37,796 nucleotides of DNA from a virus. Taxonomy: Duplodnaviria; Caudoviricetes. Positions within the stretch are counted from its first letter, which is position 1. Each line of letters begins with the position of its first letter. The stretch covers positions 1 to 37,796 of the IMG/VR virus record IMGVR_UViG_3300027038_000043; one strand, written 5' to 3'. The notes beneath the pieces are model-generated. The model searched no databases. It was not told where the DNA came from and worked only from the letters and a program-made list of their open reading frames with translations. The position numbers and the translations under genes were made by a program. Of this stretch, positions 2,181 through 26,740 are shown in pieces.

Positions 2181-2537
2181 CTACTCTTTCTTGCGGGTAT
2201 ACCATCCAGCAGGCGACCGTTCCATCTCCGGTCGCTTGTCCGCCTGCTCTTGCCGTTCTGCCATCCTCGCGTCGATATCATGCTCTGCCGCCGCATCGAC
2301 GTCGCTTGGTGAAATCGGTCGCGTCTTGTACCAGGAGTCCGCATCATCCTGGTTCTCGGGATCCTGACCCATTGGGTCCCCCGTCGGATTCCTCTCGATA
2401 TACTGGGCATATCGCTCACTGCTCAACACGTCGCTCGCCACTGCCACAATCTTGTTGAAATACTCCTCGTAGGTGATGGCTCCCTCGAGCAACTGCATTC
2501 GGACCTTCTCTTGCGCTTCAAAGAACTCTCGAAACAT
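2181..2537 (-). CDS. hypothetical protein
   Basis: ATG with GGAGG SD, directly downstream of a consensus-like minus-strand promoter. Confidence 0.7.
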   Translation of the reverse strand: MFREFFEAQEKVRMQLLEGAITYEEYFNKIVAVASDVLSSERYAQYIERNPTGDPMGQDPENQDDADSWYKTRPISPSDVDAAAEHDIDARMAERQEQADKRPEMERSPAGWYTRKKE

Positions 2538-2557
2538 AACCTAACCTCCAGGCTACC

Positions 2558-2586
2558 ATTATACTATGCCTTGCCCTAAATGTAAA
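2558..2586 (-). promoter_or_regulatory. sigma70-like promoter (leftward)
   Basis: Minus strand TTTACA, 17 bp spacer, TATAAT. Confidence 0.75.
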
Positions 2587-2697
2587 GAGAAAGTTTTGCC
2601 GAAAGTTCTTGGTCTGTTTCATGATTGGGAAAATGTAAAGACAAATCGTTCTCGAAATATCCTCCCAAGACAAGAACACGTAGAGAAGGCGTACACG

Positions 2698-3223
2698 ACC
2701 CCAGGAATCAAGTTGTGATTTGCATGATACTGGGGGTACGCTGGTTTGATCTACTAGACCCACAGCGCCGCCTGGCACCAACGAGCCCAGGAATCTAGCT
2801 GTCCCCACTTACGATTTGCGTATATAGCCATAGCTAGACCCACAGCGCCGCCGGTCGCCGGGCCTGTGGGTCTAGTTGACGATTAGGGTACGGTAGGCCG
2901 CGTTTGGACCCAACTAGACCCAGCGGGTCCGCTATGGCCCTTGCCGACCCACCCTAGCTAACCTACTGACCTGCCGAGGCTTAGGCTAGGCGCCCCTGTG
3001 GGTCTAGTTGTCCTAGGGTAGGCTAGGGTAGCCTAGAGGCCGCCAACTAGACCCCTGGAGGCGCTGGCAGCCCCGGCTGTAACCTACTGACCTGTCTGCA
3101 CTTAGGCTCCCAGCGCGCGCGGACGTTTTGACCGGCTAACCCCTGACAGGTCAGTAGTTTATAGTAACCGGACTTTCTAACGTTTTGAGTAGGTACGATA
3201 ACTCCAGACAGGTCAACGGGTTA
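2698..3223. repeat. non-coding block with two interleaved repeat families
   Basis: Six CTAGACCC-core repeats in both orientations (blocks starting near 2754, 2834, 2863, 2911, 2995, 3044) and four 25-bp TAA-N19-TTA sites (2959, 3080, 3137, 3199). Confidence 0.85.
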
Positions 3224-3233
3224 ACCCCCGTCC

Positions 3234-3261
3234 TTTACACCCGTTCAAATCGGCGTATAAT
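3234..3261 (+). promoter_or_regulatory. sigma70-like promoter (rightward, early gene array)
   Basis: TTTACA, 16 bp spacer, TATAAT; shares CGGCGTATAAT with the promoter at 1100. Confidence 0.7.
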
Positions 3262-3513
3262 GGTATCACGGTCGGGGGCGGTAGAAAGGGTTAAGGCCTC
3301 CGGGCGGTGCGGGTAGGGAACGGGCGGTATAGCGGGTGGGTGCGAAACGGGTGCTCACAGCGAAGCCAAGAACCAGGACCTTACCAGTAAAGAAGCGGGT
3401 GGCCCAGTGGGTGCTCTCTTGGAAGGTGGGTAAGTGTACCATCAACAAGAAAGAAGACCAGGCCGAAATCCTCTAGGGGAAACCGCGCCAGGATAGTCGG
3501 TTGTTGCGTGTTC

Positions 3514-3570
3514 GGCTGGAGCCGCGCGGGTTCCAGCCCCTCACGGAGCAATCATGCTCCTACGAAAGGA
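3514..3570 (+). repeat. double-hairpin leader element, copy 0 (diverged)
   Basis: GGCTGGAGCC/GGTTCCAGCC stem, then GGAGCA-ATCA-TGCTCC, then GAAAGGA SD. Confidence 0.7.
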
Positions 3571-3580
3571 CTATCTTCTC

Positions 3581-4030
3581 ATGGCTACCAAGTATTCACT
3601 CGAAGCGAAGTTCGTCGCGAACGGTTCCAAGCTCAAGGTCTATGCCCACGAGGGCAAGCGTGGAATCAACATCGGCGTCACCATCAAGAATCCGGGGATG
3701 CGCGCGGTCACCGGCTGCCCTGCGTGCGTGCAGGACCAGGACGTCGCAGCGGCTCGTTTCTACGAGCTCGTGAACGACGCAATCTCGCTCGGGTGGACTC
3801 CCAAGTCGACCACCAGCGGTGTCGCAACGCGTCGGACATCGTTCTCGCTGGTGCCGGCTGCTCCCGGCTTCGTTCCGCCTGCTCCCGAAGTCATCGCCGA
3901 AATCGGCGGCGACCCGGTGGACCAGGACGGCTTCGTCAACGAAGACGTTTCCTCGGATCTGACGCCTCCGGCGGCTCCGGATCCGGCGGCGATCGTCAAC
4001 GACAAGCCGAAGTCGCGTCGTCGTCAGTAG
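3581..4030 (+). CDS. hypothetical early protein
   Basis: ATG after GAAAGGA SD; strong GC3 codon bias; Pro/Asp-rich C-terminus. Confidence 0.8.
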   Translation: MATKYSLEAKFVANGSKLKVYAHEGKRGINIGVTIKNPGMRAVTGCPACVQDQDVAAARFYELVNDAISLGWTPKSTTSGVATRRTSFSLVPAAPGFVPPAPEVIAEIGGDPVDQDGFVNEDVSSDLTPPAAPDPAAIVNDKPKSRRRQ

Positions 4031-4093
4031 GACTCTGCGGGGTGGACAGGAAATGTTCCTGTCCATCTCGGAGCACTCCTGCTCCCTCCGAAA
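4031..4093 (+). repeat. double-hairpin leader element, copy 1
   Basis: GACTCTGCGGGGTGGACAGGA-loop-TCCTGTCCATCTC-GGAGCACTCCTGCTCC. Confidence 0.9.
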
Positions 4094-4103
4094 ATGGTGC
4101 AAC

Positions 4104-4298
4104 GTGAAGGGACCAATCATCGGCTTGGAACCGTCTGACCGCGAAGGTCAGCCGGATTACGAAATCCGTCTCGGGAAAGATCATCGCGTCTACTGCAACT
4201 GTGCGTCGTGGCGGTATTCGCCCGCTCCTGCGAAAACCTGCAAGCATCTTAAGCGTTTCAATGCGAAGATCGTCGCTGCTGCGGCCGCTGCGGCATGA
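4104..4298 (+). CDS. small SWIM-type zinc finger protein
   Basis: GTG start after the element; YEIRL...YCNCASW...TCKHL matches the CxC-xn-CxH SWIM pattern. Confidence 0.75.
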   Translation: MKGPIIGLEPSDREGQPDYEIRLGKDHRVYCNCASWRYSPAPAKTCKHLKRFNAKIVAAAAAAA

Positions 4299-4369
4299 CT
4301 CTGCGGGGTGGGCATGAGAAATCATGCCTATCTCGGAGCACTCCTGCTCCCTGCGGTTCCGAAAGGACC
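4297..4369 (+). repeat. double-hairpin leader element, copy 2
   Basis: GACTCTGCGGGGTGGGCATGA-GAAA-TCATGCCTATCTC-GGAGCACTCCTGCTCC-CTGCGGTTCCGAAAGGACC. Confidence 0.9.
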
Positions 4370-4374
4370 AATCA

Positions 4375-4656
4375 ATGGTCAATGGCACAGTCGTCAAGAT
4401 TGTCTCCGGCAAGAAGAACCTCGGCGTCGTCGGCAAGGTCTTCTGGCAGGGTCAGACCCGCTTCGGGTCACGTGTGGGTCTGAAGCAAGAAGGTTGCGAC
4501 GTTGCTATCTGGGTTAAGTCGAACGAAATCCAGATTCTGGGCGCACCCGAGGGCGATCCTCAACCCGATCTCACCGATGTCGTCCACGCGCTCGAAGCGC
4601 GCGTCGCTATTCTCGAAGAATTCATCTCTACTCTTGTTCCTTCAGTCGTGGCGTAG
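4375..4656 (+). CDS. hypothetical protein (KOW/SH3-like N-terminus, short coiled coil)
   Basis: ATG after GAAAGGA; GTVVKIVSGKKNLGVVGKV resembles a KOW motif. Confidence 0.72.
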   Translation: MVNGTVVKIVSGKKNLGVVGKVFWQGQTRFGSRVGLKQEGCDVAIWVKSNEIQILGAPEGDPQPDLTDVVHALEARVAILEEFISTLVPSVVA

Positions 4657-4716
4657 GATGGCCGCGGGGAGGGCAGGGCCAAATGTGTCCTGCTCCTCTC
4701 GGAGCTCTCCTGCTCC
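4657..4716 (+). repeat. double-hairpin leader element, copy 3
   Basis: GCGGGGAGGGCAGGGC-loop-GTCCTGCTCCTCTC-GGAGCTCTCCTGCTCC. Confidence 0.85.
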
Positions 4717-4729
4717 AGGAAGGTGGTCT

Positions 4730-4969
4730 ATGACCACTGTATTTGTGGTCTGTCATCTGGATGGCCGCTATGTCCAGGTGTACAGCGATGTGCGCGCGGC
4801 GAATCGTTTCATCTCGGATACTGGTCGTCGTGGTCTTGGAGGCTACGACGAGTATGTTATCCACACGTGCCCTATGTGGTCGTCAGCCGATCTCGCGATT
4901 GGCGACCAGGTACATGAAATCGTGGACCGGCGGTCCTCCCCTCGGTGGGATGTGGATCCTCGGGACTAG
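4730..4969 (+). CDS. hypothetical protein
   Basis: ATG after AGGAAGG, exactly bounded by element copies 3 and 4. Confidence 0.7.
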   Translation: MTTVFVVCHLDGRYVQVYSDVRAANRFISDTGRRGLGGYDEYVIHTCPMWSSADLAIGDQVHEIVDRRSSPRWDVDPRD

Positions 4970-5031
4970 GACTCTGCGGGGTGGGCGCGAAATGTCGCGC
5001 CTAGCTCGGAGCTCTCCTGCTCCTGAAAGGA
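4970..5031 (+). repeat. double-hairpin leader element, copy 4
   Basis: GACTCTGCGGGGTGGGCGCGA-AATG-TCGCGCCTAGCTC-GGAGCTCTCCTGCTCC-TGAAAGGA. Confidence 0.9.
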
Positions 5032-5206
5032 CGTGTCGCGTTGCGATAGAATGGTAACCTCACAGTGAGTGTCTCTGCCGGATCCAGGCAGGAAAGATCA
5101 GAGACACGAGGAACAGGAGTCTGGACCATGCGCTCAACCTGGGCCCAGGCCGAGGACGTCCTTCGGGACATTCCCTCGCGCGCGCATGGCATGATAAATC
5201 GCGCAG

Positions 5207-5279
5207 GAATCTGCGGGGTGGGCACGGCTGCGGTCGCGCCTAGCTCGGAGCACTCCTGCTCCCTGCGGTTCCGAAAGGA
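5207..5279 (+). repeat. double-hairpin leader element, copy 5
   Basis: GAATCTGCGGGGTGGGCACGGC-TGCG-GTCGCGCCTAGCTC-GGAGCACTCCTGCTCC-CTGCGGTTCCGAAAGGA. Confidence 0.9.
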
Positions 5280-5283
5280 TCTC

Positions 5284-5358
5284 ATGCGTATCTACGATTC
5301 TCTTTCGAACGCCTCGAAATCGGCGCTCGCGACAGCTCAGAAGGGACGGAGAAAATGA
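5284..5358 (+). CDS. 24-aa peptide MRIYDSLSNASKSALATAQKGRRK
   Basis: ATG after the element SD; stop overlaps the next ATG (ATGA). Confidence 0.5.
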   Translation: MRIYDSLSNASKSALATAQKGRRK

Positions 5359-5507
5359 AACTCCTGAAAGTCCTTCTGTTGCTGTCTCTCACTCCGTTGG
5401 CTCTCATGTTCTCGTGGTTCGGGCTCGCTGTGCTCGTGTTCCTGATCTATCGAGTGGTCATGAAGGCGACGCCGCCTGTCGTTCACTACGTGCGCGTGGT
5501 GCGATGA
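5355..5507 (+). CDS. 50-aa membrane protein
   Basis: Hand translation MKLLKVLLLLSLTPLALMFSWFGLAVLVFLIYRVVMKATPPVVHYVRVVR; ATGA overlaps at both ends. Confidence 0.7.
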   Translation: MKLLKVLLLLSLTPLALMFSWFGLAVLVFLIYRVVMKATPPVVHYVRVVR

Positions 5508-5905
5508 GCAACTGTATCGAAATCTCTGGTCGAGTCTTGAAGACCTTCAGCGACAGCGAAATTGACATCGCTGCGCTGAAGGCCCTCATTGAGTCAGTCC
5601 AGGATCTTCCGAGCGCGCCGAAATCCGGCGACGAGTATCTTGCGTGGTGGTTCCTGACAAGTCAGTGCCACGACAGCACGTGGTTCTCCGAGAGCGGATC
5701 GTATGTTACGATTCCGTTCGGTCAGTGTCGGTCTACTCACACGTGGCGCGACTTCCGCGGCACTCTGTCCTTGTTGGCGAAATACGCCCGCAAGCCGATC
5801 AAGATCACGTTCATGCTTCGCGACGTGGATTGGGATAACAACTCGAAGCCTGGTCCGCTGGTGGTGCGCCTGACCCCTGGTGGTCAGGTAGACTTCGTAG
5901 AGTAG
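5504..5905 (+). CDS. hypothetical protein
   Basis: ATG coupled to the upstream stop; 133 aa. Confidence 0.75.
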   Translation: MSNCIEISGRVLKTFSDSEIDIAALKALIESVQDLPSAPKSGDEYLAWWFLTSQCHDSTWFSESGSYVTIPFGQCRSTHTWRDFRGTLSLLAKYARKPIKITFMLRDVDWDNNSKPGPLVVRLTPGGQVDFVE

Positions 5906-12705: not shown

Positions 12706-15700
12706 ATGGAAGAAGCTACTGGTCTTGCGGTCCAATCTACTTCACAAATTGCTGAAATCCGTGCAGCTGCAAGTGTGCTGATAGAAAGAATGCAATTCTT
12801 GCGGCAAGCAGGAATCTCATTCAAAGGAGAACGAGATCTCTACGAAATTCTTGGATATGAACGACTTCTTACCAATAGAGACTTTCGTGATCGTTATGCT
12901 CGTGGTGGTATCGCTGGACGAATCGTCGACGCGTTTCCTAAAGCCACATGGCGCGGTGGTTGGGAACTGATAGAAGATGAAGATCCACAGACGGATACCA
13001 AATTTGAAAAAACGTGGCGAGAATTAGCAAATCGATTAAAGATTGGTGCGGTTTTACAACGTGCGGATATTCTTGCTGGGCTCAGTACATATGCGGTTGT
13101 ATTGATTGGAGCGAAAGGTTCAGCAAATTTGGACGAAGAACTACCAAGGGGTAATCCTGATGATCTTTTATATCTAACACCATTCTCAGGTGGTGGTGGT
13201 CCTGGTGCTTCGCAACGTCGCTCAATGACAATTGATGCAGATGCAACCATACAAACGTATGTGACGGATACGTCTGATGAACGATTTGGTCTTCCTCTTA
13301 CTTACTCTCTTAAGCGCACTGATTTTTCTGTTCCTACCTTTGTGAAAACTGTACACTGGACACGAGTAATCCACATAGCTGAAGGAATACTTGATGATGA
13401 AGTATTTGGTCAGCCAGCGTTAGAGCGTGTCTGGAATTTGCTCGATGATCTTGATAAAGTGACTGGTGGTGGTGCGGAAGCATTTTGGCTGCGTGCGAAT
13501 CAAGGACTGCAACTTGATATTGATAAAGAGATGGACATGACGCCTGAGGAAAAAGAGGCGTTGAAGACGCAGGCAGATGAGTACCAGCATCAAATACGTC
13601 GTATGCTTCGCACTCGGGGTGTTTCTGTTAACACTCTGGGCAGCGATGTGGCAAATTTTAGCAATCCTGCTGACGCCGTCCTTACTCAAATCGCTGGTTC
13701 TAAAGGTATTCCAAAGCGGATTCTAACAGGATCTGAAATGGGAGAACTCGCTTCCTCCCAAGATCGTGATAACTGGAAAGACCAAGTGAACGGGCGTCAG
13801 ACCGAATACGCCGGTCCCTATATAGTACGGCCGTTAGTGGATCGGCTCATCAAGTTTGGATATCTCCCGACACCGAAAAAGGGTCCAACAGCATACGAAG
13901 TGCGATGGCCTCACATTCAGGTTCTAACAGAGCAGGAGAAATATCAAGGAGCACAAGCGTGGGCTTCTGCTAATCAAACGGCAGGAAAGCCTGTTTTTAC
14001 AGTAGATGAAATCCGAGATAGATGGTACGGTTTTGAACCATTAACAGAAGAACAAATTGCGAAAGAACTCCCACCTGCTCCACCAGAAGTACCTGGAGGA
14101 GAACTTCCACCAACAGAAGAAGAGATTGATCCAGAAACAGGTTTACCATTAGCGAGTTTGGATCCAGACATCGCTTCGTTTGTGGCTCCAAAAGATGCTC
14201 CAAAATCACTTCCTCGCGCCGCGGCAGCACTTCCTGAAGGATCCGAAAAGATTGATTCCGTAGTTGTGCCATTATCCAAGGATGAAATCTTCTCTCTCGC
14301 TGAAACAATAGATGCTGATTGGAAAGTTGGAGAGAAAGGACTTACTCGTGTTTTCAACTTTGCTGATCGTCGCATGTGTGCGTCTTTTATACAACAAATT
14401 GCGAAGGATGCGAACTCAGCGAATCATCACCCCGACATTGTAATGGATGGTGATTCAGTTGAAATCTCTTATACAACCCATTCGGTTGGTGATAAACTCA
14501 CCAAGCTAGATTTTGAAGCTGCGGCACGAGCCGATGCTCTTGCGCTGCCACTTCGAGCTGCCGGTGGTCCTGGCTCTGGTCCACAAAAAGGTCAAGGTTC
14601 GGGTCGTGTTCCTTACTCCCCATTTCCATCCGATTATGGCTTCACTGATCCTGCCGTACGAGCCAAGCTTGCTGACCATTTTGTAGAACTGCATAATTCT
14701 GCATCTAAGGAGTATAAGGAAGCATTCGCGAAGGTTGGCGCCAAGATGTGGCGGGATGATTATGCTCACCCACTGACTGGCGAAAATGCAGATTTCATAA
14801 AAGATCATGTTGCTAAGAGTACTCCTAATGCTATCAAGTCTATCTACACCATAACACGTCCTCTTACAATGCTCGACAGCTATCCAAATGTGCCAGCAAG
14901 TAAACGAGAGATACTTGACAAGGACGTCGACCGAATCTTCAACAAATATCAGCATCAGTGGACACGAACAATTAAGACTCTTGGTGGTCCTGGCTCTGGC
15001 CCAAATCCTGGCGGTGGATCTCGTGATAACGGGGGTGATGACGATGACTCGGTGAAATTTGATAACAGAGAACTTCGTCATAATTGGACAGAAGGATCTC
15101 GTGCTACTCAATCCAAGATGAGTGATCCTACAACACCAGAGGGTGAGGAATTTTCAAAATATCTAGACACACTGCCGAAAGTTGATGGCACTTTTTATCG
15201 GGGGATGGTTGTAACATCAGAAAACTTTGAGAAAATGAAATCTGATACGAGCTATAACCTGACCAAACACTCATCTTCATCTGATAACAAGGATATAGCT
15301 GAGGGATTTCTTGGAGAACAATCTGGTTCTGAAGATGGTGTTCTAGTTCTCTTAAAAATAGAAGGATCTGGACGAAAACTAACTTCAGCTGAAGACGATC
15401 TTGAAGATGAGGGTGAAGTTGTTCTTCTCGCTGGAACACAGTATGAACGTGTTTCTTTTGAGAAGATGAAATCTGTAGAAGATAGTTGGCAGATTACATA
15501 TCGCGAGAAGAAAATACCAAAAACTCTTGGTGGTCCTGGCTCTGGTCCTCACCCGGGACCAGCTCGAACCACATCAGATGTACGCAAAGCAAACAATTTA
15601 TCAGCAACTGCAAATGCTCTTTCACAGAAAGCTGTGAAATCTGGTAATAAAGAAGACCATATCGCTGCTGCAAATGCTCATCAGATAGCAGCACGTTCAC

Positions 15701-17841
15701 AATCTGGTCTTGGGTTATCAATGATCGCATCAGATCACGCTGTTCAGGCACGAATGCACTTGGACGAGACGAAATCTGAAGCGGATCACGTAGCTGCTGT
15801 TGAGCAACGTATTCGCGAAAATAATGGTGATATTGAGGAACGCGAAGATCAGATGAATCTTTCGCGAATACCTGCTGATCGTCTTCAAGACGAAATCAAG
15901 TATGCAGAGAAAGGAGGAGGAGACGACGTTACCATCAAGATTCCTTCTGGCTCTGAATTCTCGATGTCCTTGAAGGAAGCGAAAGCAGTTCTCAAAGAAA
16001 TCACGAAACACCGTGGTCGCCATCTTGAAACGACAGAGCAGGAATTATATGTTCTTGGTGGTCCTGGTTCTGGTCCTCGCGATCAAGGCAAAGGTCGCAA
16101 ACCAGGAATTGGTCGGCAGCCCGCAGCAATCAAACCTTCGGGGATCAAGCAAAAATTTAGCAAAGATGGTCGTCCTGTTCCTATTATTACCACTTCCATC
16201 GAAGAAGCAATTCTTCTAGTACATGAAGGTCTTGTTGTTCAAGTTCGCGATGTTAAAGAAGCGCACACACTAATAGAGCGTCTTGCTGCTCTCGCGACTG
16301 CTGCACAAGCTGCGGGAAAAGACGCGAAGGACTATGATCTTTGCCAGGTCTCAGTTGCTGGCAGTAACATGTTCTGTTCTGAAAGTCTACGATCTGAGAA
16401 ATATCCAGATGGTGTGCCACGACTTGAAATGCCACAACTTGGTGGCCTGACTGTTCCAGGATCTGAAGCAGACAACTTAAAGAAAGATGAAGAAGGCAAA
16501 GTTAATGGGGCTGAAGCCTTCAAAGACCATCTGAAATCTCTAGGAATTGATATTTCTTCCGAGAATGTAAAATCTTCTAGTCTAAAAGCCAGCCAGCGAG
16601 AACTTATTGGTTCTAAGGTTGCTGGAATGATGGCTCGGATGGAAAAGGAACGGGAAGGTAAGAAGTCTGATAATAAAGAGAAGAATGCTATCTTTGTTTC
16701 GAGCGATAATTATGTAATAGATGGTCATCACCGTTGGGCGGCGTCTGTAGGGAAAGATGCGGCAGATGGTAGACTTGGTGATAGCAAGATGCATATCATT
16801 CGAGTCGACTCACCAATATCTGAAATCCTACAAATTGCGAATAAGTGGGGCAAAGAATTTGGTATTAAGCAAGTAGCAGGTGTCAAGAAGGAAAAGAAAG
16901 AGCGAGAAGCAAAGGGAAAGAAACTTAAGACTGCAGCAGAACGATGGGCAGAAACGCATAAATTCTCATCTACCCAAGTTAACCTACCCTCTTCTGTCGC
17001 CAATAAAATTCTGACGTTTGCGGCTGAAATCCCAGATGAGGATCTTGCTGAAGATGGTCGTGAAACAACTCCTCATGTTACTGTGAAGTACGGCATTCAT
17101 ACGTACGATCCTGGTCAAATTCGCGAAATTGTTGAAGGATTCGGTCCAATCACTCTCTCATTTGGGCCATTGTCATATTTTCCAAACACCGAATCAAATC
17201 ATGGTGATGTGATTTATGTTGATATTCTCAGTCCGGATCTAGAAAGACTGAACACTCTTCTTTCCACTTCACTCGAAGTGACAGATACCCATCCGAAGTA
17301 TAGACCACATGCGACGATTGCATATGTTGAAACTGGTCTAGGAGAATTTTACACAAGTGATCCGTATCATGAGCTTTTTGGCCAATCAGTAACAATCAAT
17401 GAAATCGAATTCTCTACTCCAGATGATGAACGAACAGTCATAAATCTTTTAGACGAGATAACTGAGGAACAACGTGAAATAGTATTGACACTTGAAGCAG
17501 CAATTCAAACGAACAACACTGAAATCATTGATAAGATTATTGGGACTAAACATTCTCTTGTTTCTGCTCCAGTGGAAAAAGAAGTTGAAGATGTAAAAGT
17601 CTTGGAAATTCGTCAGCTGACAGAGCAGACAAAGAAATTACAGGATGCTCTAGAAAAACAGATACCAACTACATTAGAAGCAGTCGAAAATCCCATGTCC
17701 GCTGAAATCCGAGCTTTAATCGAATCCGTTAAATTGTTGGCTGCTCGAGAGACCCCAGTGCCTCGTAAGAAAATTACACGAGTTGAACGAGATGAGAAAG
17801 GTTTATTGAAATCTTTTGTGACAGAAGAAGACAATGCCTGA
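12706..17841 (+). CDS. portal protein (DUF1073-like) with about 1200-aa modular cargo extension (PCD, unknown, ART, His-rich, ParB/Srx, 2H phosphoesterase)
   Basis: N-terminal 450 aa has portal motifs (YARGGIAGRIVD.FP..TWR, VHWTRVIH, IAGSKGIPKRILTGSE.GELAS.QD..NW); position after TerL; extension punctuated by four GGPGSGP tags. Confidence 0.9.
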   Translation: MEEATGLAVQSTSQIAEIRAAASVLIERMQFLRQAGISFKGERDLYEILGYERLLTNRDFRDRYARGGIAGRIVDAFPKATWRGGWELIEDEDPQTDTKFEKTWRELANRLKIGAVLQRADILAGLSTYAVVLIGAKGSANLDEELPRGNPDDLLYLTPFSGGGGPGASQRRSMTIDADATIQTYVTDTSDERFGLPLTYSLKRTDFSVPTFVKTVHWTRVIHIAEGILDDEVFGQPALERVWNLLDDLDKVTGGGAEAFWLRANQGLQLDIDKEMDMTPEEKEALKTQADEYQHQIRRMLRTRGVSVNTLGSDVANFSNPADAVLTQIAGSKGIPKRILTGSEMGELASSQDRDNWKDQVNGRQTEYAGPYIVRPLVDRLIKFGYLPTPKKGPTAYEVRWPHIQVLTEQEKYQGAQAWASANQTAGKPVFTVDEIRDRWYGFEPLTEEQIAKELPPAPPEVPGGELPPTEEEIDPETGLPLASLDPDIASFVAPKDAPKSLPRAAAALPEGSEKIDSVVVPLSKDEIFSLAETIDADWKVGEKGLTRVFNFADRRMCASFIQQIAKDANSANHHPDIVMDGDSVEISYTTHSVGDKLTKLDFEAAARADALALPLRAAGGPGSGPQKGQGSGRVPYSPFPSDYGFTDPAVRAKLADHFVELHNSASKEYKEAFAKVGAKMWRDDYAHPLTGENADFIKDHVAKSTPNAIKSIYTITRPLTMLDSYPNVPASKREILDKDVDRIFNKYQHQWTRTIKTLGGPGSGPNPGGGSRDNGGDDDDSVKFDNRELRHNWTEGSRATQSKMSDPTTPEGEEFSKYLDTLPKVDGTFYRGMVVTSENFEKMKSDTSYNLTKHSSSSDNKDIAEGFLGEQSGSEDGVLVLLKIEGSGRKLTSAEDDLEDEGEVVLLAGTQYERVSFEKMKSVEDSWQITYREKKIPKTLGGPGSGPHPGPARTTSDVRKANNLSATANALSQKAVKSGNKEDHIAAANAHQIAARSQSGLGLSMIASDHAVQARMHLDETKSEADHVAAVEQRIRENNGDIEEREDQMNLSRIPADRLQDEIKYAEKGGGDDVTIKIPSGSEFSMSLKEAKAVLKEITKHRGRHLETTEQELYVLGGPGSGPRDQGKGRKPGIGRQPAAIKPSGIKQKFSKDGRPVPIITTSIEEAILLVHEGLVVQVRDVKEAHTLIERLAALATAAQAAGKDAKDYDLCQVSVAGSNMFCSESLRSEKYPDGVPRLEMPQLGGLTVPGSEADNLKKDEEGKVNGAEAFKDHLKSLGIDISSENVKSSSLKASQRELIGSKVAGMMARMEKEREGKKSDNKEKNAIFVSSDNYVIDGHHRWAASVGKDAADGRLGDSKMHIIRVDSPISEILQIANKWGKEFGIKQVAGVKKEKKEREAKGKKLKTAAERWAETHKFSSTQVNLPSSVANKILTFAAEIPDEDLAEDGRETTPHVTVKYGIHTYDPGQIREIVEGFGPITLSFGPLSYFPNTESNHGDVIYVDILSPDLERLNTLLSTSLEVTDTHPKYRPHATIAYVETGLGEFYTSDPYHELFGQSVTINEIEFSTPDDERTVINLLDEITEEQREIVLTLEAAIQTNNTEIIDKIIGTKHSLVSAPVEKEVEDVKVLEIRQLTEQTKKLQDALEKQIPTTLEAVENPMSAEIRALIESVKLLAARETPVPRKKITRVERDEKGLLKSFVTEEDNA

Positions 17842-18193
17842 CTTGAAAACGACAGAGTTACCCGCGATTAGTGAGCCACTCACGTTAGCTTCCTTGCTCA
17901 TGGTGGTGCCAGATCCTGATGTTGCATTCACGAAAAAAGCAACATTAGCTGAAATCTTTGCTGCAGCAGCTTTACATGATGTTGCTATTGGGGAATTGGT
18001 TATCGGTGCTATTGATGGTGTGAATACTGTTTTCACAACCTCTGGATCATATCGAGCGCAGTCTCTTATGGTGTGGTTAAACGGACTTCGTCAAGCACGA
18101 ACAATTGATTACACAGAGACATCCGATACGACATTTTCTATGCTTGTTGCACCTATTCCCGGTGATGTCATTATTGTCGATTATTTCACGTAG
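17834..18193 (+). CDS. putative virion decoration/fibre-associated protein
   Basis: G.IDGVNTVFT...VWLNGLRQ...DYT...AP..GD.I.VDY domain shared with the C-terminus of the next gene. Confidence 0.7.
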   Translation: MPDLKTTELPAISEPLTLASLLMVVPDPDVAFTKKATLAEIFAAAALHDVAIGELVIGAIDGVNTVFTTSGSYRAQSLMVWLNGLRQARTIDYTETSDTTFSMLVAPIPGDVIIVDYFT

Positions 18194-18205
18194 AAAGTAG
18201 GAAGA

Positions 18206-19552
18206 ATGGCTGGTACAAAAATTCGTGGCAATACGCAAATCCTCGCAGCATCTATTACTGACGCTGAAATAGCTGTTGCTGCTGCTATTGCTTTGTCAAA
18301 ACTGGCTGAACCAGTTATTCAGGCAGACGGTGGTCAAGCATTCACGGCGGATCAGTCTCACGGTGGATTCAAGATTACCAATCTAGGTACACCATCTTCT
18401 TCGACAGATGCTACCACAAAAGGCTATGTAGATGGTGTAGCATCGGGATTACAAATTCATAATCCGGTTCGTGCTGCTACTGTTGGCAATATTACATTGA
18501 GCGGTGCTCAAACAATTGATGGTGTTTCCGTTATTGCTACGGACCGTGTGCTTGTCAAGGATCAGTCTGCGGGTCAAGATAATGGTATTTATGTAGCAGC
18601 GGCTGGTGCATGGGTCAGAGCAACGGATCTTGATCTGACGTCGGAGTTAATCTCCGGCATCTTTGTGTTCGTGCAAGAAGGCACTGTCAATGACAATACA
18701 GGATGGGTGCTTTCGACCGCGAACCCAATGACACTCGGTACGACTCCACAAGTATGGTCTCAATTTTCTGGTGCAGGACAGGTTATCGCTGGTACTGGTC
18801 TTACGAAATCTGGTAACACTCTTGATGTTGGTGGTGGTGACGGTATTACAATGGCTGCTGATGGCCATTCTGTCAATATTGATACAGCAGCTGGACTAAA
18901 ATTCGACGCATCGTCTCCCAAGAAAGTTCAAGTCGCAATTTCGACAGATCTAGAATTTAGTGCAGGCAATCTTCGGCTTGCCGCAGCCGTGGCCGGTGCT
19001 GGTTTAACAGGTGGTGCTGGCGCAGCTCTTGCTGTTGGTGCTGGGACAGGGTTGACAGTTGCTGCCGACGCTATCGGTATCACGGCTGGTGGCGTCGGCC
19101 CGACAGAACTTGCGGCGTCTGTGGCCGGTAATGGCTTGACAGGTGGTGGTGGTTCCGCCATCAATGTGGTGGGCGGCGATGGATTGGTCGTTGCAGCTGA
19201 TCTGGTATCAGTTGGCATTGATACGTCTGTTGGGTTGAAATTTGATGCGTCGTCCCCGAAAAAGTTACAGGTTGCGTTAGATGGTACATCTCTTTCTGTT
19301 AGTGCAAGTGGTCTGAAAGTCAATGCCGCGAAATTTATCACTCGTGAAACGCCAACTGGTCTTGTGAATGGTGCAAACGTGACCTACACACTCGCGTCAA
19401 CGCCAATTGCTGGGACGGAACAAATCTTTTTGAACGGATTGCTCCAGGAGCCAGGTGCTGGTAACGATTACACTATAAGTGGTGGCACTATTACATATTT
19501 GACAGCGCCGGTAACAGGTGATCGTCTTCGCGTTAATTATATCATCGCATAA
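18206..19552 (+). CDS. head decoration/fibre protein
   Basis: ITNLGTP...DATTKGYVD, VRAAT..NITLSG.QTIDGV, DRVLVKDQ....NGIY motifs; Gly/Ala-rich shaft with duplicated GLKFDASSPKK. Confidence 0.8.
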   Translation: MAGTKIRGNTQILAASITDAEIAVAAAIALSKLAEPVIQADGGQAFTADQSHGGFKITNLGTPSSSTDATTKGYVDGVASGLQIHNPVRAATVGNITLSGAQTIDGVSVIATDRVLVKDQSAGQDNGIYVAAAGAWVRATDLDLTSELISGIFVFVQEGTVNDNTGWVLSTANPMTLGTTPQVWSQFSGAGQVIAGTGLTKSGNTLDVGGGDGITMAADGHSVNIDTAAGLKFDASSPKKVQVAISTDLEFSAGNLRLAAAVAGAGLTGGAGAALAVGAGTGLTVAADAIGITAGGVGPTELAASVAGNGLTGGGGSAINVVGGDGLVVAADLVSVGIDTSVGLKFDASSPKKLQVALDGTSLSVSASGLKVNAAKFITRETPTGLVNGANVTYTLASTPIAGTEQIFLNGLLQEPGAGNDYTISGGTITYLTAPVTGDRLRVNYIIA

Positions 19553-19554
19553 TT

Positions 19555-20433
19555 ATGGCGCGTACTGAACTGCGTGGCGGTCAAGTTAAAGACGCCTCTA
19601 TTGGGCGTTCTGACCTTATTACAGGCACAGCTGGTGAAGCTGTGATCGCTAAATTGGTGGCTGGATTTGGTGTGACACTTTCAGGTACTGGCGCGGATTC
19701 TGGTACTGGGGATGTCACCATCTCTGCGGGGAAATGGACGGTCCTTACAAACGCTGATACGGGGGCGCAGAATAATTGGGCACCGGGACTCAGTGGTAAT
19801 ACTCTGTGCATTTGGTCTGGTGCGGCTGACGCGGCCATGACGGGGATAGCCGGTGGTGTTGTAGGGCAGATCTTCGCAATTAAAAACACCGGCACGAAGA
19901 TTGTGACGTTTGCCCATAATTCTGGTAGCTCGTCCGCTGGTAACAAATGCTTCAATTTTGTAGCGAGTAGTGTGACCCCAGTCGCGCCAGGAGGCTATAG
20001 CGCATGGCAGCATGATGGTACACAGTGGCAGATCATTGCACACGAGCAAGGGGCGTGGATTACGCCGACGTTTGCCGCTGGTGACTACACCTCAAATGCT
20101 GGCACATGGGTATTATCGTCACCCGATCGCGTGACTGGATCATACATCTTAAAAGGTCGTACGCTTTCTTTCATCTACACCCTGAACACGACAACGATTA
20201 CTGGAGCACCAACGGTACTTCTTATTGGAAATGGTGCATGGGGAGGATTTACTATCGCTTCAACTTCCACACAAAAAATGGGCTATGCAAATGATGGAGC
20301 TGTGCACCCGAGTTACGTGCAAGCGACGGCCACAGCTACGACATTTGGTCTCAATAAAGATTCTGGTGCAGCATGGACAGCCAACACCAATGCCTCCTAT
20401 TTTCAAGGCAATATTGATTGTGAGGTGACGTAA
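19555..20433 (+). CDS. fibre-like structural protein
   Basis: G/T/A-rich beta composition; N-terminus similar to the previous gene (MARTELRGGQV vs MAGTKIRGNTQI). Confidence 0.7.
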   Translation: MARTELRGGQVKDASIGRSDLITGTAGEAVIAKLVAGFGVTLSGTGADSGTGDVTISAGKWTVLTNADTGAQNNWAPGLSGNTLCIWSGAADAAMTGIAGGVVGQIFAIKNTGTKIVTFAHNSGSSSAGNKCFNFVASSVTPVAPGGYSAWQHDGTQWQIIAHEQGAWITPTFAAGDYTSNAGTWVLSSPDRVTGSYILKGRTLSFIYTLNTTTITGAPTVLLIGNGAWGGFTIASTSTQKMGYANDGAVHPSYVQATATATTFGLNKDSGAAWTANTNASYFQGNIDCEVT

Positions 20434-20816
20434 TGGCTGACTATCTTCCCTTAACAACCATACGCACGACGCCTATTAGCGTAAATGCTTTGAATATTGC
20501 GTTAAGAGTAATTGATCCCACGATAGGGGTGACAACGTTTTCTTTAGCTGATCGAACAGCGGTGCTCAAGAAATCTACTACGTGGACAGCTCCAGAAATT
20601 GCGAGTGCGCAAACTATTTTTGACACAGCATTGGAGACTACTCCACAAGCAAAAGCACAATTTGCTATTGATCAAATGGATATTTTTGAAAAAGCCATCA
20701 TTCTAACAATTCTTGATCAATTTAATCTGATTCGTTCAAAATTGGCTCCTCCGCTTCCACCCATCACGGCTGAACAAATGATCGCGGCAGTACGAACGAA
20801 AGCTGGGACATTGTGA
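20433..20816 (+). CDS. hypothetical protein, possible fibre chaperone
   Basis: TAATG coupling after the fibre gene. Confidence 0.65.
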   Translation: MADYLPLTTIRTTPISVNALNIALRVIDPTIGVTTFSLADRTAVLKKSTTWTAPEIASAQTIFDTALETTPQAKAQFAIDQMDIFEKAIILTILDQFNLIRSKLAPPLPPITAEQMIAAVRTKAGTL

Positions 20817-21307
20817 AATTACTGCTTGAACAAGGTGGAGAACTACTCCTTGAACAGGGTGGATCTCTACTGCTTGAACAAGCAGAACACGTTGGTGCAG
20901 TAATCTTTGAAGCTCCTGAGATAACTGGGTTAGGAAATGTTGCTGCTCCAGTTATTGAAGAACAAACTGGTGGTGATGGCGAAATCGTCCGAGTCCATCG
21001 CAGACCACGTCTTATTCCTGTTAAAATTGTTGGCGATGCTAATGTTACCTTTGAAACACAAGTACAAGGACAAGGCGTCGTCGGACTACCAAAAATTTCT
21101 GGTATTTGTGCGATCTCTATTGCAGAAGCAGAAGTTAGTGGTAATGGTCTCATAACTCTGCCACAAATTGTTGGCATTGGTTCTACAACGTTTGCTGCAC
21201 CAAAAATTTCTGGCCAAGGCCAAATAGAGACGGAACTAGAAATCCAAATACGTCGAGAAGATGAAATCCTTGAAGCGTGGTTGTTGATGCACGAAGACGC
21301 CGCATGA
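20813..21307 (+). CDS. hypothetical structural protein with LLLEQGG repeats
   Basis: LLLEQGG-ELLLEQGG-SLLLEQ N-terminus; GTGA coupling. Confidence 0.7.
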   Translation: MKLLLEQGGELLLEQGGSLLLEQAEHVGAVIFEAPEITGLGNVAAPVIEEQTGGDGEIVRVHRRPRLIPVKIVGDANVTFETQVQGQGVVGLPKISGICAISIAEAEVSGNGLITLPQIVGIGSTTFAAPKISGQGQIETELEIQIRREDEILEAWLLMHEDAA

Positions 21308-24300
21308 TTCAACTACCTCTCGAACCATCGGTCGCTGCCCGCTTGTTGCTGCTCGCACATCTGCGCTTGAGCGGAGGACCAGGCAGCGGACCAAATGTTG
21401 ATCGCGGCAGTCGTCGTCGTATCAAATCACGACCACCAAAAATGTCGATTGGTCAAATTAGTCATGATGGTTCTATTGAATCAAAAGAATTTGATTCTCT
21501 GAAAAGTGTAAATCACGTTGAAATCTTTAATCGCCGAGCATCAGCTTCTCAAAAATTTCGCTATCAAGCAGAAACAGTACATTGGGACGATTGGCCGTCT
21601 AAAGATGATCGTTTTTCTGTTGAAGATCATTACGACAGACTCGGATTAAAAGTAAGAGATCACCGTGTTCTTGGTCATCTAATTGCTGCTGGTGGTCCAG
21701 GCAGCGGACCAAATCCTGGCCAAGGCAAACGATCTAAAATTGGTGATGGAATCACGGCACGACGTCAAGGAGACTTTGATTTTAAGACTCTCGGATTCCG
21801 ACGATTCATGTACGGTCCGGAATCCGAAACAATAGTCTTTGGTAAACGATGGCCTCAGGGTGCGCCGGGTGTTTGGGAAGACATAGGTGCATCTCATTCT
21901 GAAGAATTCCAGTTCGCGAAACAAGATCATGGGGTTCTTGGTCATTTTGACCAATATGTAAAAGGATGGATTAATCCACCAACAGAGCGTATGCCTGGTG
22001 GTATTATTGAAATCCAAGCTCCTGATGGTCAATATTTGCCAGGTGGAAGTTCTGGAACACAACTCAGAGATGTGGATGCAAATCAGGCAGCAGTATTTGA
22101 TGCTATTCACAAAACTATAGAGCAATTTGTGAAAGCAGGTGCAACTAGACAGACAGTTATACTTGCTACAGGATTTAGAGGACCACTTGGTGAACAGTTT
22201 CCTCACTTGTTTAAGAAGCCACGAAATCTTGGTGGTGCAGGATCTGGTAACTTTGATCATGCTGGTCGACCAGGAGAGGTTGGTGGTTCAGGCGATGGCG
22301 ACGACAATGTTATTGAAGGGCATCTTGGTACCGCTCGAATCACAAAAACTGTAGATGGCACGTTTATTGTGAATCTAGACGAAGAGCACGCGCATATTGG
22401 AAAAGTGTTTGCATCACGAGACGATGCTCTAGACTACGCTCGATACAGAACTCGTGGTGATAAAAATCGGCTCACATATAATGACGAAGACAAAGCAAAA
22501 CTCCAAGCTGATAGAGATGCTCGTGCAGAACAAGAGCGTCTTGATCATTCCTATGATCCTGATGTGATTGAAGCAGGTATAAAAGAACATGAAGTAGAAC
22601 TAGCTTCTCGAAGACCAGAAACAACCACGTTCTATCACGGCACTTCGTCTGAAGCTCTTCGAAAGATAAAAACTGAAGGTCTGTTGCCAGGTCGTGGTGA
22701 AGGTGCAGATGCATGGGCTGAGGAAGAATACGAGGGACGTTCTAATGATTTCAGTATTGGTGACCGAAAAGCTTCGGTCTTCATTACTTCACGTTTAGAT
22801 CAAGCAGTAACGTACTCAGAGTATGCTGAGAAAATAACTGGCTCTCGACCAATCATTTTAGCGATTGAAGTTCCTCAAGATCAGTTAGTGAATCTCAAGC
22901 CAGATGAAATGTCTGAAGGAAAGCATGCATGGCGAACCAATAAGGGAATTCCACCGACATGGATTCTTGGCCAGATAAAGAAAACTCATGGTCCTAGTGG
23001 TGGTAAAATCACAGCACTCGCAGTTAGTAGAGTCTTCTATTTTGTGATTCCCATAGTTGAGACAGAGCTCCGTGTGACAGGTGGTCCTGGCTCTGGCCCA
23101 AATGTGGGTGGTGGCTCACGTTTTGACGATGACAATAAAGTAAGTCCTGTTCGTACGTCTACGCACGGTCTAGAAGTGAAATGTGCATGGTGTAAGAAAG
23201 ATATGGGCTGGAAGAAAGGACCTTTCTCTGGTCTTGTATCTCACGGAATGTGCGATGATTGTGTGAAAGCATTTGACGCACCAGAACCCAAGACTGCTAT
23301 TGGAACTGAAACATCTGGTAATTATGGGCATGCTGGACGACCTGGTGAAATCGGTGGAAGTGGCCCGGGTGGTGGCGGAGAAGTTTCAGGTCGAGTATTA
23401 GGAGATGATCAACCTACTCTCGAAGCGGGAATGAAGCGTATTGCAGAACTGATCTCATCCCCTGACTCACCAACGGCGTATGAAATCGATAATGAAGACG
23501 ACAGTGATTTTACCGACATACGCATTTCTTCTGAAGACGGAAACCGCACTATTGAAGTGTGTATCGAAACAGATGAAAACGATGACGGTGACAGTGTAAC
23601 AACGGCAGACCTTGCTCTAATAGATTTTAAAACTCCTGTTTCTGGAGTTGTGATTCGTCAAGCAATTGGTGAAATGTTTCAAGCTCTTGAAGATACAAAA
23701 GTAGACTATGCACAACTTCGTGCGGGATTACAGGATGGTGGCTACCTTTGGGCGCGAATGGGTTTTCGTGCAGAAAATCCAAAGGACTTCGTGAAGACCG
23801 TCGAGAAGAATCTACTCGAAGCGGAAGCACGAAAAGTTACACCTGAACAAGTGGCGCAGATTCGTAAGCTGATGGAGAATCCAACACCAAAACTTCCGCA
23901 ACAAATTGCTGATCTTAAGATCATTGGAAAACGAATTCTGCGAGGAACAGATTGGCTTGGAAAGGTAAAACTTTCTTCTCCACAGTTTAAATCACGAAGA
24001 GATCACTACTTGGGACGAAATAAACAGGAATTGTTGAAAGCTGCAGAAACACGACTTGAATATCCGTGGTTTGAACGAGCAATGCTTGGAGCAGACGACT
24101 TTGAACCTGGTGTAGATGATGAAATCTGTGACCCAAAGATTTATCGGATAGCAGGAGGTTCTGGGTCTGGTAATTTCCAACATTCTGGTCGACCAGGGGA
24201 AGTTGGTGGCTCTGGGGAAGGCGCAGGAGATTCCAAGAGATCAAGTATCTATCTCGGAAAGTCATCCGGCAAATTTAAAATTTCTAAGAAATCTGGCGAC

Positions 24301-25179
24301 AACATCAAGAAGGTAGATTTTGGTAGTGAGCATTATAATGTTGATAAGTCAGAGATGGCTGAGAACATAAATAATATGTTCCATCTCAAAGAGTCTCCAG
24401 ATGGCTATCCTATCAATTTCTACGATAAAAAAGAACAAGACGAAATGCTCTCTGAAAGCCAGCGTATTGCTAGTGCGCTAGTCGCTGATGCTAGCAAAGA
24501 TTTCGACATTCGTGTGATTCCTTATCAGACAGGCATATCGGTTGAATATGTGTCCGAAAACACGTCTTTGCTACGTTCGTTCTCACGAGGTGAGAATAAC
24601 GAACTTGTTGCCCATCATGATTTTTTTGAAACTGATAAACAAGGTGCTGGACTTGCGAAAGAAATCTTACGTTCAAGTTTTGCCGAGTACGAAAAACTTG
24701 GTGTTGATAAAGTAGAGTTAACAGCAAATCGAGATGTTGGTCGTTATGCTTGGGCCAAATACGGTTTTGTTCCAGAAGACCATGAAACATACAATGTTTA
24801 TAAATCAGCTTTGCAAGTGATGGAAGCTGAACCTGAAAAAGGAATACTTCTTGAGCAATTGATTAAAGATACCAAAAGAGAAATGAAGTCAGAAAGACCA
24901 AATCCTGAGCACATTTGGAAAATTGCAGATCATGTCGATGGATTCAAGTGGCTTGCTGGTTCGAGTGACTCTCCTTCGTGGGAAGGTAAGTTGAGCTTGA
25001 AAAACGAACGTCAGATGGAACGTCTTGCGAAATACCTCGATACGAAGAGTAAACCTCATGTGGCTGATAGAGCGAGACGTGTCAAAGAAGTCGAAGAAGA
25101 AGGTGATGACGATTCTGTAGTTAGCTCGTATGATGAAATGCCTTCTCCATCGCAGCCAAATTTCAGGACCAAGAAGTGA
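21304..25179 (+). CDS. multi-module cargo polyprotein (two unknown modules, ART/Tpt1-like, Zn finger, two GNAT-like)
   Basis: ATG at 21304 overlaps the upstream TGA; six Gly-rich tags; FYHGT, CAWC..SHGMCDDC, GGYLWARMGF, QGAGLA and GRYAWAKYGF motifs. Confidence 0.85.
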   Translation: MIQLPLEPSVAARLLLLAHLRLSGGPGSGPNVDRGSRRRIKSRPPKMSIGQISHDGSIESKEFDSLKSVNHVEIFNRRASASQKFRYQAETVHWDDWPSKDDRFSVEDHYDRLGLKVRDHRVLGHLIAAGGPGSGPNPGQGKRSKIGDGITARRQGDFDFKTLGFRRFMYGPESETIVFGKRWPQGAPGVWEDIGASHSEEFQFAKQDHGVLGHFDQYVKGWINPPTERMPGGIIEIQAPDGQYLPGGSSGTQLRDVDANQAAVFDAIHKTIEQFVKAGATRQTVILATGFRGPLGEQFPHLFKKPRNLGGAGSGNFDHAGRPGEVGGSGDGDDNVIEGHLGTARITKTVDGTFIVNLDEEHAHIGKVFASRDDALDYARYRTRGDKNRLTYNDEDKAKLQADRDARAEQERLDHSYDPDVIEAGIKEHEVELASRRPETTTFYHGTSSEALRKIKTEGLLPGRGEGADAWAEEEYEGRSNDFSIGDRKASVFITSRLDQAVTYSEYAEKITGSRPIILAIEVPQDQLVNLKPDEMSEGKHAWRTNKGIPPTWILGQIKKTHGPSGGKITALAVSRVFYFVIPIVETELRVTGGPGSGPNVGGGSRFDDDNKVSPVRTSTHGLEVKCAWCKKDMGWKKGPFSGLVSHGMCDDCVKAFDAPEPKTAIGTETSGNYGHAGRPGEIGGSGPGGGGEVSGRVLGDDQPTLEAGMKRIAELISSPDSPTAYEIDNEDDSDFTDIRISSEDGNRTIEVCIETDENDDGDSVTTADLALIDFKTPVSGVVIRQAIGEMFQALEDTKVDYAQLRAGLQDGGYLWARMGFRAENPKDFVKTVEKNLLEAEARKVTPEQVAQIRKLMENPTPKLPQQIADLKIIGKRILRGTDWLGKVKLSSPQFKSRRDHYLGRNKQELLKAAETRLEYPWFERAMLGADDFEPGVDDEICDPKIYRIAGGSGSGNFQHSGRPGEVGGSGEGAGDSKRSSIYLGKSSGKFKISKKSGDNIKKVDFGSEHYNVDKSEMAENINNMFHLKESPDGYPINFYDKKEQDEMLSESQRIASALVADASKDFDIRVIPYQTGISVEYVSENTSLLRSFSRGENNELVAHHDFFETDKQGAGLAKEILRSSFAEYEKLGVDKVELTANRDVGRYAWAKYGFVPEDHETYNVYKSALQVMEAEPEKGILLEQLIKDTKREMKSERPNPEHIWKIADHVDGFKWLAGSSDSPSWEGKLSLKNERQMERLAKYLDTKSKPHVADRARRVKEVEEEGDDDSVVSSYDEMPSPSQPNFRTKK

Positions 25180-26588: not shown

Positions 26589-26728
26589 ATCTCTTAGTTT
26601 TGCTCATTATTCTCATTCTCTTGTTTGGCGGTGGTGGATGGTATTCAGGTAATAACAATGTCGCTATTGGTGTTCCTGGGATACTAATTATCATTCTCAT
26701 CATTTTGCTAGTTACAGGAAGGCTCTAA
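26585..26728 (+). CDS. 47-aa DUF3309-like membrane protein
   Basis: Hand translation MNLLVLLIILILLFGGGGWYSGNNNVAIGVPGILIIILIILLVTGRL; GGAGG SD, ATGA overlap. Confidence 0.75.
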   Translation: MNLLVLLIILILLFGGGGWYSGNNNVAIGVPGILIIILIILLVTGRL

Positions 26729-26740
26729 CAGGAGACTAAA

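Follow-up and report, generated by a model that had tools for sequence, protein, structure and literature searches.

The window, that is, the whole stretch analysed here, comprises 37,796 nucleotides (positions 1 to 37,796 of IMG/VR record IMGVR_UViG_3300027038_000043; Duplodnaviria, Caudoviricetes) and represents a 51% complete virus record encoding helicase, terminase, portal, capsid and tail genes. No close relative was found among cultured phages, with terminase identity reaching at most 39%, and blastn against these phages returned only two 30-nt matches, judged to be chance. A run of small + strand genes, none belonging to a PHROG or Pfam family, lies downstream of a strong sigma70-type promoter-like site (TTTACA-16-TATAAT, 3234-3261), which agrees with 11 of 12 consensus positions and is a consensus match only. 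These genes are termed early, a label deduced from the operon layout. The site is followed by a long G-rich 5' leader (3268-3496) holding a putative 20-codon ORF that ends with TAG 3494-3496. Early gene 1 (3581-4030, 149 aa) has homologs in L302, L297, L192 and L298, and early gene 2 (4104-4298, 64 aa from a GTG start) has homologs in L192 (71%) and L302 (37% over 46 aa). Early gene 3 (4375-4656, 93 aa) and early gene 4 (4730-4969, 79 aa) have no assigned function, and a 24-codon ORF with a GAAAGGA Shine-Dalgarno (SD) sequence occupies 5284-5358.

Interspersed with these genes, on the same strand, are six copies of an element consisting of a 5' flank, an anchor C, a variable hairpin (hairpin 1) and a second hairpin of the form GGAGC-N6-GCTCC (hairpin 2). 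Copy 1 (3497-3560) comprises the flank at 3497-3506, anchor C3507, the variable hairpin and hairpin 2 at 3545-3560. In copy 2 (4027-4085), the stop codon TAG 4028-4030 lies inside the flank, ahead of anchor C4038 and hairpin 2 at 4070-4085. Copy 3 (4293-4350) combines stop TGA 4296-4298, anchor C4304 and hairpin 2 at 4335-4350; copy 4 (4654-4716) combines TAG 4654-4656, C4665 and 4701-4716; and copy 5 (4966-5023) combines TAG 4967-4969, C4977 and 5008-5023. Copy 6 (5203-5262), with anchor C5214 and hairpin 2 at 5247-5262, has no stop codon directly ahead of it.

The original prediction of six copies was borne out, these being the sole copies in the window by both pattern and covariance model. 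In 300 dinucleotide-preserving shuffles of the window, GGAGC-N6-GCTCC occurred 0.01 times on average and at most once. A covariance model of 26 elements, whose training set included the six window copies, scored these copies at 56-69 bits and the next best candidate at no more than 17.1 bits, and the folding energy of all six gave z values of -3.2 to -6.3 against shuffles. Several details of the earlier description needed revision. The statement that copies 1 to 4 begin at the upstream stop codon had skipped the 3514 copy in its numbering, and it is true of the 4031, 4297, 4657 and 4970 copies. The lead GACTCTGCG, given as a common feature, is absent from the 3514 and 4657 copies. A third hairpin enclosing the SD (TTCC-GAAA-GGA) does exist, but in the 4297 and 5207 copies rather than in those named, and no convincing start codon was found downstream of the 4970 copy.

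The element is a real, uncatalogued RNA family. No match was returned by Rfam 15 for the window at gathering score, or for window positions 2400-5600 at E values up to 5; among 20 element loci only tRNA was matched, and 11 further loci gave nothing, so that the Rfam check proposed earlier has revealed no characterised family, whether twister, pistol, hatchet, HDV-like or other. Motif and topic searches of the literature yielded no description of the element, within a scope that was thin on subscription journals and lay outside supplementary motif lists. Pattern scans returned 2, 28 and 21 viral loci, 54 genome loci and 121 of an estimated ~210 metagenome loci, many of them chance or partial matches; the exact window hairpin-2 pattern had no match in viral contigs, and a long window-specific pattern found three loci, none with the architecture of the element. 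Most terminase relatives of the window phage lack the element, and a host search over 151 genomes from the phylum of G032, run without a positive control, gave no match.

The comparative set comprised 34 elements in 16 record groups, from the window and other uncultured phages, which were chosen by eye from pattern and model hits on two features, a hairpin directly adjoining GGAGC and a flank able to pair. The set excludes duplicates as well as L133-L135, whose sequence is that of the window, several weaker or atypical cases (L101, L069, L189, L169 and L039) and a copy with a 4-nt loop in L143. Across 26 aligned elements, 12 of the 13 pairs of hairpin 1 showed changes on both sides, which upholds the covariation originally noted. 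The proposal of an RNA-level structure on the + strand also held, given the G-U pairs and the recovery of 21 viral loci by the pattern of hairpin 2 plus SD versus 3 by a loop-flipped control, all three being one self-symmetric sequence that also matches the forward pattern. All five pairs of hairpin 2 were kept in 34 of 34 elements, an invariance partly built in by early search patterns that fixed GGAGC/GCTCC; the three both-side changes all occur in L192, in copies found by the model.

The double hairpin described earlier carries compensatory changes, but a second fold competes with it and excludes it, the pairing of the 5' flank having been overlooked. In the alternative long fold, ten bases 5' of hairpin 1 pair with the 5' strand and loop of hairpin 2, giving a single hairpin of ~22-25 bp (an upper arm of 12-20 nt in most elements plus 8-10 lower positions) with a conserved G.G mismatch, the flank of which overlaps the upstream stop codon. 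The span of the upper hairpin is never below 30 nt. The anchor C-G pair at the junction is present in 33 of 34 anchor-aligned elements, G.G at -1/+1 in 30, and an A-U or U-A pair at -2/+2 in 32, while further long-fold pairs are formed at -3 in 31, at -7 in 32 and at -8 in 30 of the 34. Pairs switch even within a single phage, as in L043 (U-A versus G-C at -6/+6), and one L192 copy has changed to C-G at -2/+2 and to U-A at -3/+3 with hairpin 2 retained. Flank and loop of the same element are more complementary (-3.57 kcal/mol) than permuted combinations (-1.79±0.33 kcal/mol), a difference reached in none of 100,000 permutations of 28 unique pairs, although kinship among the elements inflates this significance. 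In the folding predictions the long fold dominates in 28 of 31 intact elements, where hairpin 2 has a probability of 0.05 or less; with the flank blocked, hairpin 2 reaches 0.86 or more in all 31. The double hairpin is therefore not the predicted ground state in five of the six window copies, where the flank pairs with hairpin 2, and is predicted to be favoured in copy 3. Both folds look to be under selection, with the long fold appearing from these predictions to form first.

The long fold has the dimensions of an RNase III substrate, for which PMC3867540 describes an ideal length of ~22 bp, a stem length around the cut that the predicted ~22-25 positions provide. Ten registers were scored with the E. 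coli in vivo pair matrix (PMC6212723, Table S4), the rules of which the host may not share. In 26 of 34 elements (12.1 of 16 groups) a single register came out on top; its 3' cut immediately precedes the first G of GGAGC, and its 5' cut lies two bases above the anchor. The p values from column permutation, ~0.01 for the whole and 0.0007 when the base-side half is taken alone, are optimistic, the 34 elements being hand-picked and related. This register alone has A-U or U-A at both D and D' in 16 of 34 elements, other registers achieving this in at most 2, and it places the near-invariant U-A at D', C-G or U-G at E' and G.G at C', the position at which G.G is commoner than at any other in the E. 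coli substrates tabulated in PMC6212723 (6/85). Its lead by mean score persisted when the G.G and U-A columns were removed (16/34) and when the window and L192 were left out (18/23).

The fit is one-sided. An A-U or U-A pair occupies the D-type position in 32 of 34 elements on the base side and in 17 of 34 on the loop side, where G-C or C-G, disfavoured at D and D' in RNase III sites, is found in 9; the loop-side half scores -2.8 bits, with positions A and C fitting badly and often G-U. Such a one-sided fit is possible because a single set of proximal and distal boxes can suffice to specify an RNase III site, as described in PMC1540722. The strict score given with the matrix, -25.5, was reached by 3 of 33 elements and a score of -33.8 by 30 of 33, and a register inside hairpin 1 was slightly better per position in absolute terms. 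The 40 elements of the alphaproteobacterial class described below favour no single register (split 14/13/5/other), and a sequence-dyad test was weak (best p 0.04 among seven registers) and was dropped. In the window, the predicted 3' cuts fall at 3544/3545 (with a 5' cut at 3509/3510), 4069/4070, 4334/4335, 4700/4701, 5007/5008 and 5246/5247 in copies 1 to 6, respectively; copies 1 and 2 prefer other registers by the matrix, a neighbouring one in the case of copy 1. The one RNA run that could be compared yielded three contigs of 151 nt and no transcript ends.

The intergenic slots themselves point to cleavage. In a relative, G002/L302, the homologs of gene 1 (46%) and gene 2 (37% over 46 aa) keep the order seen in the window, and three complete type I hammerhead motifs are present, in the gaps after the gene 1 and gene 2 homologs and in one further gap, each starting at the upstream stop and ending in the SD. 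These are the only descriptor matches among 313 loci (1.37 Mb with overlaps); since the Rfam score of one of them is 23.9 bits, under the cut-off of 34, it is the core sequence and the stems that identify them. Perfect hairpins of 16-18 bp stand on either side of the gene 1 homolog in G001, and plain long hairpins precede early SDs in G001 and others. Clustered phage hammerheads that cut long transcripts have been described (PMC3088659). What ribozymes do between phage genes is treated as an open question in PMC6765202. The occurrence of a hammerhead, a plain hairpin or the present element in one slot argues that the selected function is cutting of the early message into separately stabilised pieces, and the intergenic slot would then be a cleavage site.

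Taken together, we consider it reasonably probable that the copies direct processing of the transcript by RNase III and that the downstream product then folds anew, forming a protective hairpin at its 5' terminus. The T7-like RNase III processing listed among the original hypotheses is thus the one favoured by the register fit, the slot and the long fold, with cleavage itself being predicted. A long polycistronic early message would be transcribed from the upstream promoter, and each gap would fold into the long, imperfect hairpin of ~22-25 bp predicted above with covariation support. A host enzyme, presumably RNase III, would cut one or both strands, the 3' cut falling immediately 5' of the first G of GGAGC; the downstream piece so released is predicted to refold at its new end into the 5-bp GGAGC/GCUCC hairpin. 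The overlap of the lower-stem and hairpin-2 folds would follow from this geometry, since a cut in the hairpin leaves the 3' strand of the lower stem at the new 5' end, so that a terminal hairpin must reuse those bases. By analogy with processed mRNAs of B. subtilis, which are stabilised by 5' hairpins (bioRxiv 10.1101/2023.03.12.532304), the terminal hairpin 2 likely protects a single-gene message; five hits in which hairpin 2 and an SD, lacking hairpin 1, directly follow a promoter-like site count in favour of this. A ribosome terminating at the upstream stop might modulate the cutting, and the copies may double as crossover points for cargo exchange, as PeSLs do, a role that is possible because cargo differs between the window and L192. 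The reading predicts the new 5' end to one nucleotide, the first G of GGAGC, and, if true, a module of 60 nt that cuts the message and caps its own product would be of use as an insulator in engineered gene expression.

Self-cleavage offers a different, though unlikely, source of the same cut: the element could be a new class of small ribozyme, a G.G-containing hairpin swapped with hammerheads, that cuts near the junction of hairpins 1 and 2 and refolds to cap the product. Its occupation of slots held by three hammerhead motifs in a relative is the kind of shared context by which twister was recognised (PMC6765202), and its ~14 near-invariant bases, including the G.G mismatch, within a size of 60-70 nt would suit a small ribozyme. 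However, this conservation is explained by double pairing, and the length floor of hairpin 1 and the RNase III register fit also speak against self-cleavage. The topology appears to provide no junction or feasible pseudoknot: in some copies the whole six-base loop is taken up by pairing with the flank, and pairing of the flank with the 5' strand of hairpin 2 would exclude hairpin 2. There is neither a hammerhead core nor an Rfam ribozyme match: the core CUGANGA...GAAA...UH in a three-stem junction is absent from the element loci of the window by a type I and III descriptor, and RF00163 has no match in G000. A loose hammerhead pattern run over 32 records was uninformative, being equally frequent in controls. 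The failure of ten candidate motifs from ribozyme-bearing contigs to cleave, recorded in PMC10085705, further counsels caution. Readings of the element as a pseudoknot or as a pistol-like or HDV-like RNA were discarded because the topology does not fit.

Quite unlikely, in our judgement, is a switch operating without any cut, in which a ribosome terminating at the upstream stop removes the 5' flank from its pairing, so that the double hairpin forms and downstream translation or stability becomes coupled to upstream translation. In 26 of 34 elements, an ORF of at least 40 codons has its stop codon beginning 5-13 nt ahead of the anchor, and blocking the flank converts 31 of 31 elements to hairpin 2. 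Yet the cost of opening the SD and start hardly changes between the folds (4.63 versus 4.47 kcal/mol, n=29), being lower by more than 0.5 in 6 elements and higher in 10; a switch exposing or occluding the SD was rejected on this lack of systematic change in SD access. Moreover, some copies have no upstream stop, and a start at the stop codon is seen in the hammerhead motifs as well, so the overlap may reflect compaction. Modulation of cutting by the ribosome is also compatible with RNase III processing.

Little probability is likewise given to the element being only a stabiliser or protein-binding site, acted on by another nuclease or by a binder of the hairpin-2 loop, with RNase III uninvolved. 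A hairpin 2 whose loop starts with A-M-U is also found in other architectures: one class (five hits) places hairpin 2 and an SD, without hairpin 1, directly after a promoter-like site, and another, in arrays of alphaproteobacterial genomes, places hairpin 2 after an 11-bp tetraloop hairpin. This recurrence, and the orientation specificity of 21 versus 3 loci, would suit a bound or protective hairpin, but they leave the covarying long fold and the register fit unexplained, and in the alphaproteobacterial arrays the sequence of hairpin 2 is variable, with compensatory changes, or the hairpin is missing.

It is very unlikely that the copies serve mainly as DNA recombination anchors for the swapping of accessory genes in the manner of T4 PeSLs. 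L192 does carry five copies around partly different cargo with homologous genes in unchanged order, and copy 6 has a chimeric look, its stem arm resembling copy 5 and its tail being identical to copy 3. The stems, however, diverge in sequence yet stay paired, and the G-U pairs and the strand specificity indicate a role at the RNA level; several phages carry a single copy only, and shuffling may be a by-product.

The least plausible reading, to which we attach almost no weight, is that of put-like nascent-RNA antiterminators, which would act by terminator read-through via the RNAP zinc-binding domain; it draws on the two adjacent stems in an early operon, but the 5' duplex with triple helix, bulged stem I and irregular stem II described in PMC9378689 have no counterpart in the alignment by eye, the element is repeated in each intergenic gap and replaceable by hammerheads, and terminator-like sites in the region are not in excess (6 versus 6.3 in shuffles). 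This part of the original prediction is not supported.

Intercistronic signals of the T7 R1.1 type are imperfect hairpins between early genes with a mismatch near the cut. The present element shares with the T7 early RNase III signals (rules in PMC3867540, PMC1540722 and PMC6212723) an imperfect hairpin of about two turns between early genes, a mismatch near the predicted cut and, in about half of the elements, A-U or U-A at both D and D', whereas here the lower stem overlaps a second, conserved and mutually exclusive hairpin placed exactly at the predicted new 5' end, the G.G is conserved, hammerheads take the place of the element in a relative, and cleavage is a prediction. Clustered hammerheads of phages and prophages (Perreault et al. 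2011, PMC3088659) occupy the same slot and, judging from the synteny with G002/L302, likely have the same purpose of cutting the polycistronic early transcript into gene-length pieces; the present element lacks their CUGANGA/GAAA core and three-way junction, and its product would begin with a hairpin, whereas a hammerhead product would begin with the SD. Like the T4 PeSL cassettes (PMC2839356, PMC4122927), it is a repeated intergenic module ending in SD and start ahead of variable ORFans, but the promoter scan, whose hits were the strong site ahead of the array and a weak 9/12 site at 5023-5052, placed no sigma70 promoter within the copies, and conservation acts at the level of RNA pairing. 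With HK022 put RNA (PMC9378689) it has in common two adjacent stems in a phage early transcript, and it differs in architecture, in being present once per gene and in having a competing long fold. Most likely the element works like the T7-type RNase III signals with a built-in 5' hairpin.

Long leaders of 230-430 nt, which are predicted to be structured, separate the promoter from the first early gene in the window (3268-3496), in L302:3576-4000 of record G002, in L192:2680-3045, a relative carrying five element copies, and in L028:4010-4395, where the first element also contains a large insertion within hairpin 1. Upstream of the early promoter, in the window region 2750-3110, a visual count gives approximately six short CTAGACCC repeats, which occur in both orientations. 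The region also holds a 29-nt direct repeat and is accompanied by a divergent promoter-like site at 2586-2558; it is possibly an origin or genome-end region. At the corresponding position, L192 contains a repeat of ~23 nt occurring six times by eye (3080-3450), likewise upstream of its early promoter.

The stretch between copies 5 and 6 of the window (5024-5200) lacks a clean gene, and an ORF starting at 5128 would run in frame through copy 6 into the ORF at 5284. Behind related elements at other loci, the cargo includes DUF932 genes (L043:3089-4045, L046:2025-2981, and L101:2545-3372). Hairpin 2 followed by an SD, with hairpin 1 absent, is located immediately 3' of promoter-like sites at L063:3001, L063:3370, L070:3028, L079:2533, and L140:2024.

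Further downstream, window positions 12706-29989 encode head proteins of very large size. The portal measures 1711 aa and has domains that are pterin-4a-dehydratase-like and 2'-5' RNA ligase-like; alongside it are an unknown protein of 1300 aa and one of 1082 aa that bears a DnaJ-type zinc finger. Across these proteins, a repeat family coding for a Gly/Pro/Ser motif occurs about nine times.

Arrays of unknown genes were identified in soil Alphaproteobacteria, three of them in the single genome G028 (L300:4850-10620, L299:7700-13020, and L301:6400-9720). In front of every gene lies an 11-bp hairpin that has a loop of the AGCA/AGAA type and, in addition, an internal loop and a short lower stem; 3' of it come a variable small hairpin and then the SD. 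Rfam gave no match. Arrays of the same kind are present in L086, L114, and L117, and group II intron domains (RF00029 and RF01999) lie close to one array, at L300:15228-16406.

L302, which carries homologs of window early genes 1 and 2, contains three type I hammerhead motifs (4446-4510, 4706-4765, and 5090-5150), only one of which is scored by Rfam, under the family cut-off. Because the SD of the following gene sits within stem I of each motif, hammerhead cleavage would free the ribosome-binding site of the next gene.
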